Source of the DNA: a virus
Taxonomy: Duplodnaviria > Heunggongvirae > Uroviricota > Caudoviricetes
Direction: 5' to 3' (one strand)
Virus record (IMG/VR): IMGVR_UViG_648276671_000005
DNA length: 6,906 bases
Below are positions 1-6,556 of the stretch, one piece after another. Below the pieces are notes generated by a model. The model ran no database searches. It was not told the origin of the DNA and worked only from the letters and a program-made list of their open reading frames with translations. Both the position numbers and the translations under genes were made by a program. How positions within the stretch are numbered: the stretch's first letter is position 1; every line of letters starts with the position of its first letter.

Positions 1-218
1 ACGCCGTTAAGCTCAATACCATCACGGCGCATCACCTCAGCAACAACACGCGCGTAATTTTCGGCTATCACGCTGTCCGGCTGCGTGGCCTCCTGTTCGC
101 CAGCCTGCTGGCTGATTCCGGTAATACTGCGGATTATCCCGAGCGCTTCGGTCTCGGTCATGGTCATGGTCATGGTCATGGTCATGGTCATGGTCATGGT
201 CATGGTCATGGCCTCCAT
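1..218 (-). CDS. Partial CDS (3' end beyond window start) of unknown function with an N-terminal (Met-Thr)9 repeat
   Basis: Minus-strand frame is open from ATG at 216-218 to position 3 with no stop (my manual translation: MEA(MT)9ETEALGIIRSITGISQQAGEQEATQPDSVIAENYARVVAEVMRRDGIELNG...). A strong Shine-Dalgarno AAGGAGGA (complement of 231-238) lies 12 nt upstream of the ATG. Same strand as every other gene here. Not in the ORF track because it has no stop in the window. Frame choice is uncertain: five of six frames are open across the repeat. Confidence 0.4.
   Translation of the reverse strand, partial: MEAMTMTMTMTMTMTMTMTMTETEALGIIRSITGISQQAGEQEATQPDSVIAENYARVVAEVMRRDGIELNG
156..209. repeat. 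Perfect tandem hexanucleotide repeat (GGTCAT)9, i.e. (ATGACC)9 on the minus strand
   Basis: Direct reading: nine uninterrupted GGTCAT units at 156-209, flanked by GGTCTC (150-155) and GGC. Encodes (MT)9 in the favoured minus frame, (HD)9 in the ORF-track 37..315 frame, and (GH)/(VM) on the plus strand. Confidence 0.95.
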
Positions 219-454
219 AGTGATGGCGGGTCCTCCTTGTGGGGTGCCCTGCCACGGGGCGGGAGCATCGCGGAAAAAGGCTAGTTTTTGCATTTTTATT
301 CGTCATCACCACCAATGCAATATATTGATATGACTTGATGTTTTATTTTTCGGTGTCGATTTCGATTGTTTTTTGTTCATCACTGACGCATAACGCCCAC
401 CAGCGCAACGCTGAAAGCCAGTCAGTAAACTGGCTTCGGTCATTGTGCACTACG

Positions 455-998
455 TTACTTGTCTTTATCCGGCTGAAACTTATCAGGCACATTTCCGGTA
501 GTTTCCATCAGATAATCGGACAGCATTCGCGGGATGTTTTCATCAAGTTTTGTGCATGCGTTACAGGCTCTGACAACTTCTTTTTTCAGGCCATCCAGCA
601 TGACGGGGGTCATCTGTGGGAAGCTCCTTTGCATAGTAAGCGGGCAGGCTGTCCATGATTGATGAAATCTGACTCGCCAGTTTTGAAAGCGCGTACATGC
701 AAAACTCTGTATCAATCACGTCACCGCGATCGCGCTCGTTTTTAAGTTCCTGCGCCTCCGCCTGTGCTGTCAGTAATCTGATCCTGACTCGTAAGAGTTC
801 ATCATCATCAATCTCGCCTTTGTCGTTTGTAAGCTGGCTAATTGCATTGTTAACCCTATTGTCTATCACGCTGGCAACATCATAAAACGCCTCACGGCCT
901 TTACGTTCAATGGGAGTCACTCCCCACTTGTCGAATGCTGTAGCACTTACCCGGCAGCTTTGCGCCATGGTTTTTTTGTTCATCAGGTGCGATTTCAT
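455..998 (-). pseudogene. Lambda Nu1-like terminase small subunit (terS), interrupted by a +1 frameshift at a C5 run (G5 on plus strand, 605-609)
   Basis: ORF 561..1001 (N-terminal part) contains LTAQAEAQELKNERDRGDVIDTEFCMYALSKLASQISSIMDSLP, matching lambda Nu1 [45 protein letters not shown]. ORF 455..715 in the +1 frame contains MLDGLKKEVVRACNACTKLDENIPRMLSDYLMETTG, matching the Nu1 C-terminus FLKRDIIKAMNKAAALDELIPGLLSEYIEQSG. Removing one C from the run GACCCCCGTCATG joins them into an approximately 178-aa protein (Nu1 is 181 aa). Start taken at ATG 996-998 (MKSHLMNKK...); ATG at 983 is an alternative. Could be a real inactivation or a homopolymer sequencing error. Confidence 0.75.
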
Positions 999-1120
999 CA
1001 ATATCCCAACTTGGTCAAGGTTTCAGGTTGGTGTGTTGGTGTTATCTTTCCCTTTTTATTCATGGAGATAGAGCAAACAACAAAACCACCACCACCACCC
1101 TGAAAAAGCTCATAAATAGC

Positions 1121-1151
1121 GAAAAACCGCGAGGTCGCCGCCCCGTAACGG
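1121..1151. other. Lambda-type cos site (cosN core; 12-nt cohesive-end sequence GGGCGGCGACCT at 1132-1143 on the minus strand)
   Basis: Minus strand reads TTACGGGGCGGCGACCTCGCGGTTTTTCGCTATTTATGA, near-identical to the lambda cosN region GGGCGGCGACCTCGCGGGTTTTCGCTATTTATGAAAA as I recall it. It lies about 135 bp upstream of the Nu1-like gene, as in lambda where cosB separates cosN from Nu1. Confidence 0.75.
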
Positions 1152-1175
1152 GTCCATATGCCGGAAAGGACCCGT

Positions 1176-1198
1176 AAAAAAAGCCGGATTTCTCCGGC
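1176..1198 (-). terminator. Rho-independent terminator after the capsid operon
   Basis: Minus strand: GCCGGA-GAAA-TCCGGC followed by TTTTTTT (A7 at 1176-1182 on plus strand), starting 7 nt past the stop of the 137-aa gene. Confidence 0.7.
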
Positions 1199-1204
1199 CT
1201 TGTC

Positions 1205-1618
1205 TCAGATGGTTTTCAGTATGCGATCGATGTCGCCATCATCGCCCGGGTTTCTGCCAGCGTATGCCATACCAGCTGATACGGCTTTCGGGCTGTGCAT
1301 GTCCATAAAGTTTTCAAAGGCTGCGGTAAGCTCTGGTGCAACCTTCTGGCGTTCCTGCTCTATGGTCATGCTAAGGATGCTTTTAGCCGTACCAACATCG
1401 ATACAAGGCACGTTTGCCATTGCACGTAACAGCGGCTGATAGTCGCCAGATTCATCAAGCGCCATAATCGCATCAGAGCGCGGCTTGTCCTTCTCTTCCA
1501 GGCTGTTAAGTTGATATACGGCCTCGTAGGTTGATAAACCTCTGTCAGCCATTGCCCGCGCTTCGGCCTTAAATTTACTCGCCAGCGGTAGCGTCATGAT
1601 GCTTTCATTCGTTGCCAT
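1205..1618 (-). CDS. Hypothetical protein (137 aa), last gene of the capsid operon
   Basis: ORF-track ORF with SD GAGGGA 5 nt before the ATG (complement of 1619-1630), 12-nt gap after the gpD-like gene, terminator directly downstream. No family recognised by eye; no obvious match to lambda FI. Confidence 0.65.
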   Translation of the reverse strand: MATNESIMTLPLASKFKAEARAMADRGLSTYEAVYQLNSLEEKDKPRSDAIMALDESGDYQPLLRAMANVPCIDVGTAKSILSMTIEQERQKVAPELTAAFENFMDMHSPKAVSAGMAYAGRNPGDDGDIDRILKTI

Positions 1619-1630
1619 CGTTCCCTCTGC

Positions 1631-1966
1631 TTATCGGGCCAGTGGCTGAACGGATACGCCAGAACCCGCAAAGGCGGCGCATTTTTTCGCATCGGTGTCG
1701 ACGCTCTCAGGCCAGTTAACGGCGGCGATATTAAATATCCCCGTCTTATAGCACTGTGCTGATTTCTGCGTCGACGTGTCAACGGGGTACGAGGTCAGAT
1801 AAACAGCCTTGCCAGATTCCTGACCATCCCACGGCTTAAACTCGCCATTGTCCGCCAGCATCAGCGGGGTAAATTCCTGAATAACTCCAGCATCAGCGGC
1901 AAAATGTACCAGCGTCGTGGATACCTGCTGACTGCCTGCAAATAACTCAATGTATGGAGTGTTCAT
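1631..1966 (-). CDS. Head decoration protein, lambda gpD-like (111 aa)
   Basis: TPLMLADNGEFKPWDGQESGKAVYLTSYPVDTSTQKSAQCYKTGIFNIAAVNWPESVDTDAKKCAAFAGSGVSV aligns with lambda gpD [75 protein letters not shown]. Length matches gpD (110 aa). SD GGGGGA upstream. Confidence 0.8.
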   Translation of the reverse strand: MNTPYIELFAGSQQVSTTLVHFAADAGVIQEFTPLMLADNGEFKPWDGQESGKAVYLTSYPVDTSTQKSAQCYKTGIFNIAAVNWPESVDTDAKKCAAFAGSGVSVQPLAR

Positions 1967-1977
1967 AGAATCCCCCG

Positions 1978-3033
1978 TTAAGCAATTTTGACGGTAACAA
2001 ATTTGCGAATATCTGCCGGTACCGGCTGCGGTGCGCTGTGCGTCTGCACGTACTCAATCGCCGGATCGCCATCCTCAATCCAGTTTTTCGGGTAGTACAT
2101 GTTTTGCGTTGCGCCAGTTCTTACCGCTTCCGGATCCATAATCGCACCATAGGCCACCAGCCCTTTATTGTTAGTGTTGCCCAGGACAAGCAAATCAGGC
2201 TCAAGGAAATATTTTTCGGTGCCATCGCTGTCGGTGTATTTGCCGGAATAGACGATAAGGGCCAGATCACCCAGATAGCCTTTAAAGCTCACCACTTCGC
2301 CCAGGTTTTTACAGGCCAGCTCTGCGGCGGATTCTGAACCACGGGAAAGATCGTACAGTTCACGGAATTTTTTAAAGCTGCGTAACGTGCGCCATACCTC
2401 AGCGCCCATAATCATGACGTTGGCGGGGCAACCAGCCTGATCGGTGTATAGTTCGATGTCATAGATTGGATCGTGTGTTTCCTTATCTGCCTCAGACCAC
2501 TTTTTGCCCGATCCCTGCGTAATGATGTTTTTAGTCGGGATTTTCCAGTCGATTTCGTATCTATTTATTCCTTCGCCCTCAATGATGTTTTTTCCGGTCG
2601 TGACCGCATTCACCGCCAGCCATTCTATGCGAGCTTTAATAGCGTTTACCTGGCGGCGCATGTTGCCAGTAATCAGGCGCATACGGCGATAAGTTGGATC
2701 GTTAAGCTGTGCCGGATCTTCTCCAGCCATGCGCATGATGGTTTTTGATGGATCGATTTCGTGTTTTGGTTTCATGTAGCCAGGGCGGATAGTGCTTGTT
2801 TCGTACCCTTTATCGCGCTGAACCTGACTCCCCACCATAGGCGAACAAAAAGCCGACATGGTGACTTCTTCAATATCCAGGGTATCTAACATGATGTCCT
2901 GCGTGTTGAAGGTTGCCACGTTCGGGAAAAACAGCGACGTAAACAGCGGACTGAATTTAAATTCCGAAATATCCCCACGATTCAGGTACGCGAAAAGCTG
3001 GTTAGTGTTAAGTGCCGTTGCTTTGCCTGTCAT
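1978..3033 (-). CDS. Major capsid protein, lambda gpE family (351 aa)
   Basis: Co-linear similarity to lambda gpE across the whole length: FKFSPLF vs FKFDPLF; RPGYMKPKHEI vs TPGYVKPKHEV; EDPAQLNDPTYRRMR vs EDPQNLADPAYRRRR; NIITQGSGKKWSEADKETHDP vs NNITQGSGTEWSKRDKSTYDP; VSFKGYLGDLALIVYSGKY vs VSYKGMYGDVAIVVYSGQY; VLGNTNNKGLVAYG vs VLGNTQARGLRTYG; YPKNWIEDGDPAIEY vs YPKNWVTTGDPAREF. gpE is 341 aa. Confidence 0.9.
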   Translation of the reverse strand: MTGKATALNTNQLFAYLNRGDISEFKFSPLFTSLFFPNVATFNTQDIMLDTLDIEEVTMSAFCSPMVGSQVQRDKGYETSTIRPGYMKPKHEIDPSKTIMRMAGEDPAQLNDPTYRRMRLITGNMRRQVNAIKARIEWLAVNAVTTGKNIIEGEGINRYEIDWKIPTKNIITQGSGKKWSEADKETHDPIYDIELYTDQAGCPANVMIMGAEVWRTLRSFKKFRELYDLSRGSESAAELACKNLGEVVSFKGYLGDLALIVYSGKYTDSDGTEKYFLEPDLLVLGNTNNKGLVAYGAIMDPEAVRTGATQNMYYPKNWIEDGDPAIEYVQTHSAPQPVPADIRKFVTVKIA

Positions 3034-3490: not shown

Positions 3491-3913
3491 TTAAAACGGT
3501 ATGTTATCCCCGTACGGATCATCGTTACCCGCCTGTTGTTTTGCCCTGTTCAGTGCGTCAGTAGCCTGCCCTTGCTGGCCTTTTTTGCCGCCCGGTCGCG
3601 CCGTTCTCGCACTGATTACGCTGTCTGCGATAACCTGCCAGCCCTGCCGCGTTTCGCCGTTCTGGCCTGTCCACTGGCTTACCTGCATGTTACCCGCCAC
3701 GCTCACCAGTTCGCCTTTGTGGTGTTTTGCCAGCGCATCGGCCTGTCTGCCAAACGCCAGGACGGATAACCACATCGTCGCCGTTCCGTCATCTGCCTGG
3801 CTGCACGGAAGGGGGACCGCCATACTAGCCATCGTCATTTGTGTACCCTTGCTGGTGGTCTTTAACTGCGGGTCAGCCACCAGCCGCCCGTAAGCCGCTA
3901 TCTGTGCTGTCAT
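3491..3913 (-). CDS. ssb: Single-stranded DNA-binding protein (SSB), 140 aa
   Basis: OB-fold region WLSVLAFGRQADALAKHHKGELVSVAGNMQVSQWTGQNGETRQGWQVIADSV resembles E. coli SSB [52 protein letters not shown]. Gly/Gln-rich linker and acidic C-terminal tail DDPYGDNIPF (compare SSB DFDDDIPF). Confidence 0.85.
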   Translation of the reverse strand: MTAQIAAYGRLVADPQLKTTSKGTQMTMASMAVPLPCSQADDGTATMWLSVLAFGRQADALAKHHKGELVSVAGNMQVSQWTGQNGETRQGWQVIADSVISARTARPGGKKGQQGQATDALNRAKQQAGNDDPYGDNIPF

Positions 3914-4202: not shown

Positions 4203-4430
4203 TCACCTGTTCACCTTTTGATATTTTCCATTTAAATTCATACTGTTAAGTGGTGAACAGTTTCACAAAAACTATTCACCAACTGTTCACCACTGTTCAC
4301 CCTTGAAGCTCAATAAACAACCAAAAAGGTGAACAGTGAATAGTTTGGTGAACAGTTCATAAATAACTGTTCACCCTATAATATACTGATATAAAAGATA
4401 TTTATGACAGGGTGAACAGTGGTGAACAGT
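4203..4430. repeat. Iteron array, putative origin of replication (nine perfect 9-mers GGTGAACAG/CTGTTCACC in both orientations)
   Basis: Forward GGTGAACAG at 4252-4260, 4328-4336, 4347-4355, 4411-4419, 4421-4429; reverse CTGTTCACC at 4207-4215, 4283-4291, 4293-4301, 4367-4375; plus degenerate copies (4273-4280, 4336-4344). Flanked by an AT-rich stretch at about 4170-4250. Starts immediately after the replication-protein stop. The core TGTTCACC is, as I recall, the P4 ori/crr type I iteron bound by P4 alpha. Confidence 0.8.
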
Positions 4431-4442
4431 TATTCCATAAGT

Positions 4443-6260
4443 TTAATTTTTGCTGTCGTCATTAGTGACCGATACACATGATGGCATCCAGTCTTCTGAT
4501 TCCTCCGTCAGTGTCACGTTTGAACGCAAACCGTGCTTCGTTTTCCGTTTCATATACTCCCTGCCATATTCCGCCATTGCCCCCGGCATATCTTTACCGA
4601 AGCGCGTCAGTGTTACAGGTTTACCAAACCCATGTGCCCTCATATAAGCCAGATAGGCATGATAGAGATACCTGCGTGGGCTGAATGGCACAATTTCAGC
4701 ATTACCCACTAACAGGCCATCACACATTACCGACGCCATGAGATAGCCGCAGAAGTCCACCAGCGAATCCCCCTCTCGCTTTATCGCCAGTGCTTCTTCA
4801 GATTTCTGCTGCTCATATAACAGGCGTCTGGCTTCGTCCTGGTCAGCAAACCGTGTAAGCAGATGGCGAATCACTACCGCCAGCTCACCTTCTATTTTTT
4901 CCGCCAGCATTGGATCGCGTTCGTTCTCCGGTACAACTTCCGAAAAATTGAATATCACCCGACGACGTGAGATCCCCCCGCTGCGGTCACTGAATGACAT
5001 GGCGTTATTGTTAACCGCCAGCACTACTGCCGGAATACGCGTTGAGTAGGGGGCTTTGTGTTTCGGGTCAATTGCCACCTTGTCACCGCCTGTAATAGCC
5101 TTAATCCCTGCCCCATCACCAGCGTAGCGGGTCATATCCGGCATGATAATCAGCGAAAAGCCAACCACTAACGCGCGTTCCCTTGCATCTTCCAGCGCCT
5201 TCATGCTTGCCGATACTGTGTTGGCCTTACCCGCCAGCATGGTGCAAATCTCCGCCATCACGCTTTTACCACTTCCCCCTGGACCTGTTACCTCAATGAA
5301 TAACTGCCAGTCGTACCGGTTCGCCAGCACCATGAATAATGCAGCCAGTACGCGATCCGCCTTGCGGTCATTCTCAGCCACCGAACGGCGTAACCACTTC
5401 CAGAAATTCGGCGCATGTGTTGCCAGCGTTTCCCCCTCTGCTGGTGGGCTGAAAGGTAATTCACTGGCAATTAACAACCAGTCGTTTTTGTTATGCTCCC
5501 GAAAATTACCTGTTCTGGTATCAAATACCCCGTTACTGAATCCAATCAGGTTACGGGCTGTATTCCCCATTACAGGCAAACTTAACTTCATGGTATCGAC
5601 CGCCGATTTAATGGCGTTCTGCGAATAGCTGATCTCCGCATCAATGAAAATCTGCGCCATAGCTCGCTGTAATTCTTTATCCTGTACTGGCTCCCATACA
5701 ACGCCGTTGTAATGGTGAACAGTGTCAGAGTCAGCATGAATCGCCAGTTCACCGCCATAATGTGCCAGGAGAACTTCGCCGCGTTGACTTGCTCCCATCT
5801 GGTTAAGCGCCAGTGATGAAGCGTTATCGTCTTTTACCCGCTCTTTTTTCTTTACAGGCAGTTCAACTACCTTTTTCTTTTCCGCCAGCTCTGCCCGTTC
5901 ACGTTCCAGATATTCGCGCCAGTTCTCCCGTTTCTGGCTGTGCATTCCTTCAGGATAATAATCAGCATCCCTGACACCTGCCGCTGCCAGTTTCTGCCCG
6001 ATGGTATTAACAAGCCCCGGACGCAATAACCCCGCCTGATAGAGACGCACGCGATAGCGTCCGTCCGGTACGATTTGCAGGTTGTCCAGTTCGGCAAGTT
6101 GTTGCTCTCCAAGCCAGACAGGAGGCACGTTATCGCCAGCCAGTCGCCCGTCCTGTTCCTGCCACTGCTTCGCATGTGCCCACGCATCACTACCCGCAAA
6201 AATGATGACTTCCGTCATTTTGTCACGTGGCTGGTGTTTTAAATTTGGCGCTTTTTTCAT
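4443..6260 (-). CDS. P4 alpha-like replication protein (D5-N / SF3 helicase, putative primase-helicase and origin-binding protein), 605 aa from ATG 6260
   Basis: Walker A motif GPGGSGKS (in EVTGPGGSGKSVMAEI) and Walker B-like LVVGFSLIIMPD; size and layout typical of phage/plasmid P4-family primase-helicases; iterons immediately downstream. The ORF-track start at 6275 is GTG; the ATG at 6258-6260 (MKKAPNLKHQ...) overlaps the upstream stop as ATGA and has a GGAG SD. Confidence 0.85.
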   Translation of the reverse strand: MKKAPNLKHQPRDKMTEVIIFAGSDAWAHAKQWQEQDGRLAGDNVPPVWLGEQQLAELDNLQIVPDGRYRVRLYQAGLLRPGLVNTIGQKLAAAGVRDADYYPEGMHSQKRENWREYLERERAELAEKKKVVELPVKKKERVKDDNASSLALNQMGASQRGEVLLAHYGGELAIHADSDTVHHYNGVVWEPVQDKELQRAMAQIFIDAEISYSQNAIKSAVDTMKLSLPVMGNTARNLIGFSNGVFDTRTGNFREHNKNDWLLIASELPFSPPAEGETLATHAPNFWKWLRRSVAENDRKADRVLAALFMVLANRYDWQLFIEVTGPGGSGKSVMAEICTMLAGKANTVSASMKALEDARERALVVGFSLIIMPDMTRYAGDGAGIKAITGGDKVAIDPKHKAPYSTRIPAVVLAVNNNAMSFSDRSGGISRRRVIFNFSEVVPENERDPMLAEKIEGELAVVIRHLLTRFADQDEARRLLYEQQKSEEALAIKREGDSLVDFCGYLMASVMCDGLLVGNAEIVPFSPRRYLYHAYLAYMRAHGFGKPVTLTRFGKDMPGAMAEYGREYMKRKTKHGLRSNVTLTEESEDWMPSCVSVTNDDSKN

Positions 6261-6556
6261 TTCTGCTCTCTCCACGCGGCAATCATGTTTTTCAGTTCCT
6301 GTAGTTTTTTATCCACATTCACACGTGACACATGGTTATTTCTGGAAAGCGGGATTTCCCGCCTGAATCTGCTAATAAAGATCTCCACGTTCAGCGAACT
6401 ATGAAATGAATAGCCATCACGAATAAAATACACACGGTCAAACATTATCGATTTTACTGTTACTCTGTTGCCGTTCTTATCCCGATAAATAGCGCCGGGG
6501 ATAATTTTGGGATGTGCATAACCGCTGGCAGTCAAGCCAGATAAATACGTTCTCAT
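6257..6556 (-). CDS. Hypothetical protein (99 aa), translationally coupled to the replication gene
   Basis: ORF-track ORF with ATG at 6554-6556, SD GGGGA about 9 nt upstream; stop overlaps the replication-protein ATG (ATGA). Unknown function. Confidence 0.55.
   Translation of the reverse strand: MRTYLSGLTASGYAHPKIIPGAIYRDKNGNRVTVKSIMFDRVYFIRDGYSFHSSLNVEIFISRFRREIPLSRNNHVSRVNVDKKLQELKNMIAAWREQK

Follow-up and report, generated by a model that had tools for sequence, protein, structure and literature searches.

The minus strand at 1024-1174 is probably the primary cos site of a phage-inducible chromosomal island (PICI) that encodes its own small terminase subunit (TerS), and this TerS would recruit the large terminase subunit (TerL) of a helper phage. 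The window, by which we mean the whole 6,906-nt stretch of DNA analysed here, is the right half of a Gram-negative PICI. An earlier note, written from the letters of this DNA, had proposed that packaging specificity is redirected to "the element"; that element is a phage satellite and encodes a Nu1-family TerS of its own, a setting for packaging redirection (PMC6092414, PMC6739421). Features are collected in Table 1. Positions within the cos site, cos1, are counted in bp, where bp 1 is the first G of the cohesive-end 12-mer at window 1143 and bp n lies at 1144-n.

Table 1. Coordinates of features in the window
Feature	Position	Strand	Remarks
DUF4222 protein	6257-6556	-	
D5-type primase	4443-6275	-	
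Iterons GGTGAACAG	4207-4429	both	10 copies, of which 9 are exact and one has a mismatch; directly downstream of the primase gene
SSB	3491-3913	-	
gpE-like major capsid protein	1978-3033	-	
gpD-like decoration protein	1631-1966	-	
137-aa protein	1205-1618	-	no assigned function
Hairpin GGCCGGAGAAAUCCGGC-UUUUUUU	1180-1201	-	inverted repeat; RNA fold -19.1 kcal/mol, z = -3.5
cos1	1024-1174	-	
cosQ-type element CGGGTCCTTTCCGG	1161-1174	-	identical to lambda and PhiR5_1, spacing to cosN unchanged
cosN cohesive-end 12-mer GGGCGGCGACCT	1143->1132	-	exact match to lambda and 21
cosN right flank CGCGGTTTTTCGCTATTTATGAG, bp 13-35	1109-1131	-	columns invariant or nearly so
R3-position box, core TGGTGGTGGTTTTGTTGTT at bp 50-68	1076-1099	-	invariant columns, 11 sequences from 5 genera
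Block TATCTCCATGAAT, bp 74-86, I1 (IHF) position	1058-1070	-	conserved TATC....TGAWT columns
R2-position box CAACACACCAACCTG (family consensus CAATACACCMACYTG), bp 106-120	1024-1038	-	conserved columns
terS, Nu1-family small terminase subunit	455-998, ATG at 998	-	Pfam Phage_Nu1 PF07471, PHROG 57
cos2	227-420	+	convergent with cos1 across terS; 86-88% identity to mEp460 and phi458 cos regions
cos2 cosQ-like element	227-234	+	
cos2 12-mer GGGCGGGAGCAT	257-268	+	
cos2 IHF core CAATATATTGATA	318-330	+	perfect core, in mEp460-type cosB

A lambda-type cut site on the minus strand

Sequence comparison places a lambda-type cos, comprising cosQ, the 12-mer and its right flank, at 1098-1177 on the minus strand, in the same orientation as terS. 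A 48-nt pattern built from lambda (CGGGTCCTTTCCGG-N8-C-NN-GTTACG-GGGCGGCGACCT-CGCGG) matched the window once and without a mismatch, at 1127-1174 (minus strand); none of 200 shuffled sequences matched it. The cosQ element aligns with that of lambda without gaps, is conserved across satellites of five genera, and is separated from the 12-mer by 17 bases. In lambda, cosQ is the signal for packaging termination. The right flank of cosN spans the position annotated as IHF site I2 in the phage 21 record.

A BLAST search of 50,697 phage records returned 101 records, among them lambda, 83.8% identical across window 1099-1178, and PhiR5_1, 95.8% identical across window 1110-1180. When the site is aligned with lambda (DE3 record), 21 and PhiR5_1, the invariant columns run from cosQ to ...CGCTATTTATGA / TTTATGA. 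Beyond TTTATGA the likeness to these phages collapses until the first small-terminase codons; similarity to the three ends about 40 bp before the terS start. The description of the 12-mer and its flanks in the earlier note as near-identical to lambda cosN is borne out by both the zero-mismatch pattern and the lambda/21 alignment, and its placement of the 12-mer at 1132-1143 is confirmed, read from 1143 to 1132 on the minus strand. The conserved range of 1121-1151 that it gave captured a genuine match and understated its extent, which is really about 1098-1177 and includes cosQ. Its view that the DNA from cosN to terS differs from lambda also agrees with the alignment, in which likeness is lost past the cosN flank.

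Just upstream of cosQ, the hairpin and T-run at 1180-1201 are probably the terminator of the capsid-gene operon; a consensus terminator scan did not call this hairpin and flagged cosN itself instead. Separately, the 12-mer at bp 1-12 of cos1 differs among islands that share one cosB (L035-L114, L015, L024, L027-L029), where GGGCGGCGACCT, GGGCGTCAGGCG, GGGCGGAAGGCG, GGGCGGAGACCT, GGGCGGCAGACG and others occur, as though cosN and cosB had each been fitted to a different partner.

Two conserved boxes between cosN and terS

Relatives of TerS were gathered by protein rather than by DNA motif, from Escherichia, Enterobacter, Citrobacter, Kosakonia and Superficieibacter, and the upstream regions of 11 sequences from these five genera were aligned. 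A contig search with one TerS as the query gave no loci, and a repeat search with the TerS alignment as the query gave only 5. Past the cosN flank, three blocks are conserved in the five-genus alignment amid drifting sequence. The first, GGTGGTGGTKTTGTTGTT, occupies bp 51-68 (window 1076-1093); the second, TATC....TGAWT, bp 74-86 (window 1058-1070); and the third, CAATACACCMACYTG, bp 106-120 (window 1024-1038). The third is inverted relative to the first, the pair forming an inverted repeat at 1021-1033 / 1093-1105 (TTTCAGGTTGGTG / CACCACCCTGAAA).

The positions of these blocks equal those of R3, I1 and R2 in phage 21, whose record annotates R3 at bp 50-65, I1 at bp 72-86 and R2 at bp 107-122 (bp 1 being record position 167). 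R3 lies at bp 50-65 in lambda and at bp 48-60 in N15 (PMC9026076). The layout is thus one of boxes at the R3 and R2 positions and a block at I1, in sequences that are not lambda's and with no R1. Against the IHF consensus YAANNNNTTGATW, the I1-position block matches at 6 of 9 positions here versus 8 of 9 in related prophages, and an IHF site at this position was dropped as a claim. Spacing is tightly kept: from bp 1 to the terS ATG there are 148 bases in 27 of 30 distinct E. coli IMG/VR sequences, the exceptions being one of 145 and two of 168, the latter only since the TerS match starts 20 nt further in. Furthermore, TTGTTGTT begins at bp 61 in 63 of 64 IMG/VR loci. A scan of the interval from cosN to terS revealed no sigma-70-like promoter for terS.

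The earlier note had picked out a (CCA)n run and a GT-rich repeat in this region, and both are present, detected by Tandem Repeats Finder as (ACC)5 at 1085-1099 and two copies of GTTGGTGT at 1027-1042. It had read them as low-complexity sequence; they are instead the most conserved cosB blocks over five genera. Because they are conserved in the alignment and sit at the R3 and R2 positions, we interpret these two stretches as boxes. The R3-position core is preceded by two variable GGT units at bp 45-50. These two cosN-proximal units vary by substitution, and only three units and TTTTGTTGTT are conserved. A hypermutable (GGT)n microsatellite was considered as the main reading and rejected, since length variants make up only 3 of the 31 distinct cos sequences from E. 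coli and the proximal units change by substitution.

Length variants do occur. One IMG/VR sequence is without one GGT unit in the R3-position box. Two contigs with identical TerS (P0026), L018 and L019, are set apart by two GGT units, or 6 bp, of this box; in L018 the box lies 6 bp nearer cosN with TerS unchanged, which is hard to square with a strict spacing rule.

TerS is a Nu1-family protein of the N15 type

TerS aligns with lambda gpNu1 over its full length (36% identity, E = 1e-33, residues 6-166 versus 3-180, BLASTP), and by this homology retains the C-terminal region that in lambda binds TerL. The closest phage TerS is N15 gp1, at 45.5% identity. The two parts of the protein have different kin. 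Its DNA-binding domain is 57% identical to those of N15 and a class of N15-type E. coli lambdoid prophages (the L007 class), versus 24-27% for lambda, 21 and PhiR5_1; its C-terminal part is 53% identical to PhiR5_1 and 50% to the L007 prophage. An N-terminal domain of the form LNK..MA.S...S..AFDKWGV with a short wing is common to N15, Pseudomonas MD8, the L007 class and the satellite. The check proposed in the earlier note, an alignment against lambda, phi80, HK97 and 21, would miss this closest relative.

An AlphaFold2 model of TerS from a 26-sequence alignment was of low confidence (mean pLDDT 61, pTM 0.34), with elements in the order strand-helix-helix-hairpin-long helix, and a Foldseek search of this model against the PDB gave no match at E <= 0.001. 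In the window, a G3/C3 run near 642-644 has one base too many, which disrupts the terS frame and yields pieces of 146 and 86 aa; intact TerS would be 180 aa, and relatives are 178-181 aa. The frameshift may be a sequencing error, given that the matching assembly, E. coli A33, is rich in 'frameshifted' annotations.

The kinship with N15 extends to the DNA. In N15, the segment at bp 48-60 that scanning mutagenesis identified as R3-N15 (PMC9026076) has the sequence GAGGTTGTTGTTT. Prophages of the L007 class, which are common (431 IMG/VR hits), carry GGTTGTTGTTT at bp 51-61, TATCTAATTGATA at bp 74-86 (the block with 8/9 of the IHF consensus) and, at bp 110-118, ACAACAACC in inverted orientation, followed further on by a third box. 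The satellite cosB lies in register with this prophage cosB, at 76% identity over window 1025-1179, and has GGTGG in place of GTTGT and no third box. The satellite thus displays the xAFDKWGV helix and the G/T-triplet R3 at about bp 48-68 that mark the N15-type class, in a variant with GGT for GTT. Its boxes are related to, though diverged from, the GGTTGTTGT boxes of N15 and of this class of E. coli lambdoid prophages. Given this homology, the satellite cosB was inherited from a phage lineage and then modified rather than being the element's own invention. The redirection of packaging pictured in the earlier note is partly borne out, by the lambda-type cut site, the non-lambda cosB and the satellite's own TerS; a specificity different from that of N15-type helpers is a prediction.

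Box and helix go together across loci. The TerS helix SAT-AFDKW pairs with GGTGGTKTTGTTGTT in 64 of 65 satellite loci and with ACACCMAC in all 65, and the helix SVQ-AFDKW pairs with GGTTGTTGTTT in 74 of 75 loci and with ACAACAAC in all 75; no mixed pairs occur in the 140 loci. As the pattern reflects two clades and not many independent changes, we treat it as an association rather than proof of co-evolution.

These comparisons also bear on the main rival to recognition by the satellite's own TerS, namely mimicry, in which cosB would be read directly by an N15-type helper TerS of the L007 class and the satellite terS would be redundant or interfering. The shared register and 76% identity of the two cosB regions, the 57% identity of the DNA-binding domains with their common AFDKWGV helix, and the abundance of candidate helper prophages are all as mimicry would have it. 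However, the boxes differ consistently (GGTGG versus GTTGT) along with the helix (SAT versus SVQ), without a mixed case, and full-length terS is maintained in several genera, apparently under selection. We consider mimicry unlikely.

The window is the right half of a PICI

All genes of the window lie on the minus strand. Upstream of cos1 are the primase, iteron origin, SSB, gpE-like capsid protein and gpD-like decoration protein, consistent with the Gram-negative PICI architecture described in PMC6092414. The iteron GGTGAACAG has 13 matches window-wide versus 1.4 expected, and its cluster at 4207-4429 is a probable iteron origin of replication. In a cleanly annotated relative (L002), the whole element spans about 11 kb from a tyrosine integrase to terS, between roxA and phoQ, and contains int, HTH, Icd-like, DUF4222, primase, SSB, capsid, decoration and terS genes. 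By the L002 gene set, size and location and by the primase and iterons of the window, the element qualifies as a Gram-negative PICI, a class defined (Fillol-Salom 2018) by int, an AlpA/HTH regulator, a primase with an adjacent ori, a size of about 10-15 kb, the lack of tail and lysis genes, and an att site of its own.

To gauge how widespread this cos is, a 276-bp query spanning the terS start, cosB, cosN and cosQ was used. Of 5426 complete E. coli genomes, 767 contain at least 80% of the query, so that about one in seven carries a TerS-type cos, and the cosN/cosQ part taken by itself occurs in 4665. E. coli A33 is 100% identical over the query. In that genome (L001, 4256978-4281487), three island copies lie head to tail, each int ... 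terS, with many disrupted genes; the triple copy is either a true tandem integration or an assembly artefact. Two further observations concern islands of this kind. A perfect (GGTCAT) repeat of 9.3 units at window 156-211 encodes, on the minus strand, (Met-Thr)n at the start of a ~93-aa gene downstream of terS; L024 has two units and L002 none. Loci L008-L014 show the helper-embedded PICI arrangement, as in PMC10111431.

The disrupted genes of the A33 copies and the terS frameshift could mean that the island is a decaying relic, its cos intact in sequence yet no longer used. Islands encoding TerS are known in E. coli strains IHE3034 and 18098, and in the single published test they were not mobilised, with no transfer after mitomycin C induction of their own strains (PMC6092414). 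Decay of this kind would nonetheless have to leave cos1 identical in 3 IMG/VR loci and the boxes invariant across the family, and a single-base homopolymer frameshift in an assembly full of such calls suggests a read error. A dead relic is accordingly less likely than mimicry, and we rate it as improbable.

A second, inverted cos and exchangeable cassettes

On the plus strand, cos2 faces cos1 across terS (Table 1). It is intact, not degenerate, and of the mEp460 type. Of the 69 related IMG/VR loci having enough sequence, 38 possess such an inverted cos2, its phage-type cosB being 21-like in 16, 'CAGATCC'-type in 13 and mEp460-like in 9.

The slot between the two cos sites, compared over window 227-1180 and L006 5280-6160, holds alternative genes, terS here and rpp in the related island L006, where a 146-aa protein at the terS position matches RppC (6HLK) with E = 2e-31. 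This Rpp-type island has ACCACCACC at bp 55-63 of its cos1 and N15-like GGTTGTTGT boxes in its cos2. Rpp proteins have 139-154 aa, a winged HTH and no TerL-binding C-terminus. An Rpp identity was rejected by direct comparison with RppC in the PDB, which neither the 146/180-aa nor the 137-aa product matches, in contrast to the L006 protein.

The shared slot raises the alternative that TerS acts as RppA-C do, forming a heterodimer with the helper TerS that blocks helper packaging and retargets the complex. That rpp occupies exactly the same place in related islands fits this idea, as does the dimerisation of Nu1-type DNA-binding domains (PMC9026076). Yet TerS has no sequence match to RppC, has a profile that matches lambda TerS 1-98 only weakly, and, unlike Rpp, keeps the region that binds TerL in lambda. 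We give such a heterodimer little credence and place it, too, below mimicry.

With the satellite's own TerS as the preferred reader of cos1, TerS-type islands can be pictured tentatively as a two-door module, a joint proposal that we hold with less than even confidence in all its parts. Here cos1 would be open to the island's own TerS only, with R3 and R2 boxes changed from GTTGT to GGTGG and matched by a change of the helix start from SVQ to SAT. The other door, cos2, would carry an exchangeable helper-type cosB, mEp460-like here and 21-like or 'CAGATCC'-type in relatives, to be read by the unmodified helper terminase, and terS and rpp would be swappable cassettes. If true, the module would offer natural matched swaps of TerS/R-box specificity for the study of Nu1-type DNA reading.

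Proposed packaging pathway

From the anatomy of cos1 and the homologies of TerS, we infer the following course, in which box binding, TerL recruitment, the cut and the direction of packaging are predicted steps. Helper-induced excision and replication would come first. The satellite TerS would then bind both inverted boxes, the one at the R3 position (GGTGGTGGTTTTGTTGTT, bp 50-68) and the one at the R2 position (CAACACACCAACCTG, bp 106-120), with the DNA probably bent at the conserved block that separates them. Its lambdoid-like C-terminal half would recruit the helper large terminase (gpA family); with the C-terminal TerL-binding region retained, as in lambda, the satellite TerS should need no bridge through the helper TerS. 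The helper TerL would nick the lambda-type cosN to leave 12-nt 5' ends GGGCGGCGACCT (1143->1132), and packaging would proceed leftward through terS and stop at the next cosQ/cosN of the concatemer.

Discussion

The union of a lambda-type cut site with a private recognition region in E. coli PICIs was already published between 2018 and 2022. In EcCICFT073, each of the two cos sites joins lambda-like cosQ/cosN to a foreign cosB, and RppA-TerS reads cos1 (Fillol-Salom 2018 and 2019, PMC6092414, PMC6739421); an R3 equivalent has been proposed at bp 48-65 in Rpp-type islands (Murialdo & Feiss 2022, PMC9026076). With islands of lambda-like cosQ/cosN and foreign cosB, and islands encoding TerS, already in print, our finding to that extent restates known biology. 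The TerS-type solution can now be pictured, with its conserved boxes at the R3 and R2 positions and its N15-class kin; a literature search of incomplete coverage found no description of the cosB of TerS-type islands or of a link to N15.

Because PICIs spread virulence and defence genes among enterobacteria, the way in which they are selected for packaging shows which phages spread them. The box and helix differences between satellite and prophage provide a ready test of how Nu1-type proteins read cosB, and they are a possible guide to the design of private packaging signals for cosmid or PICI delivery vectors.

Among known systems, EcCICFT073 belongs to the same class of element, with the same succession of E-like capsid, D-like decoration protein, 137-aa gene, cos, specificity gene and inverted cos, and its cos1 likewise combines lambda-like cosQ/cosN with a cosB unlike lambda. 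The Rpp-type relative L006 shares a triplet-repeat box at the R3 position (ACCACCACC). In contrast to the Rpp type, specificity here is encoded by a gene for a full-length TerS of the Nu1 family, the triplet repeat lies on the opposite strand (GGTGGTGG), and a second box is present at the R2 position, whereas searches of Rpp-type cos sites found no repeated R sequences (PMC9026076).

N15 and the N15-type prophages share with the satellite the type of DNA-binding domain and G/T triplet boxes equally far from cosN, and the prophage class has I1 and an inverted R2 at the satellite coordinates. The satellite departs from this class in its boxes, which read GGTGGTGG..TTGTTGTT and GGTGT instead of GGTTGTTGT, in its SAT rather than SVQ helix, in the absence of R1, and in a cosN-terS distance of 148 rather than about 230 bases. 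In N15 itself R3 is the only R box, and the 12-mer is another one. Lambda and 21, arranged as cosQ-cosN-I2-R3-I1-R2-R1-Nu1, agree near base for base in cosQ, cosN and the flank, and in layout, orientation and box positions; they differ in unrelated R-boxes, a TerS DNA-binding domain at 24-27% identity and the presence of R1. Finally, the TerS of staphylococcal islands (SaPIs) offers an analogy, in that a satellite small terminase acting with a helper large terminase selects satellite DNA (PMC6092414). That system is headful (pac) and uses another protein family, in contrast to the cos with a defined cut site described here.
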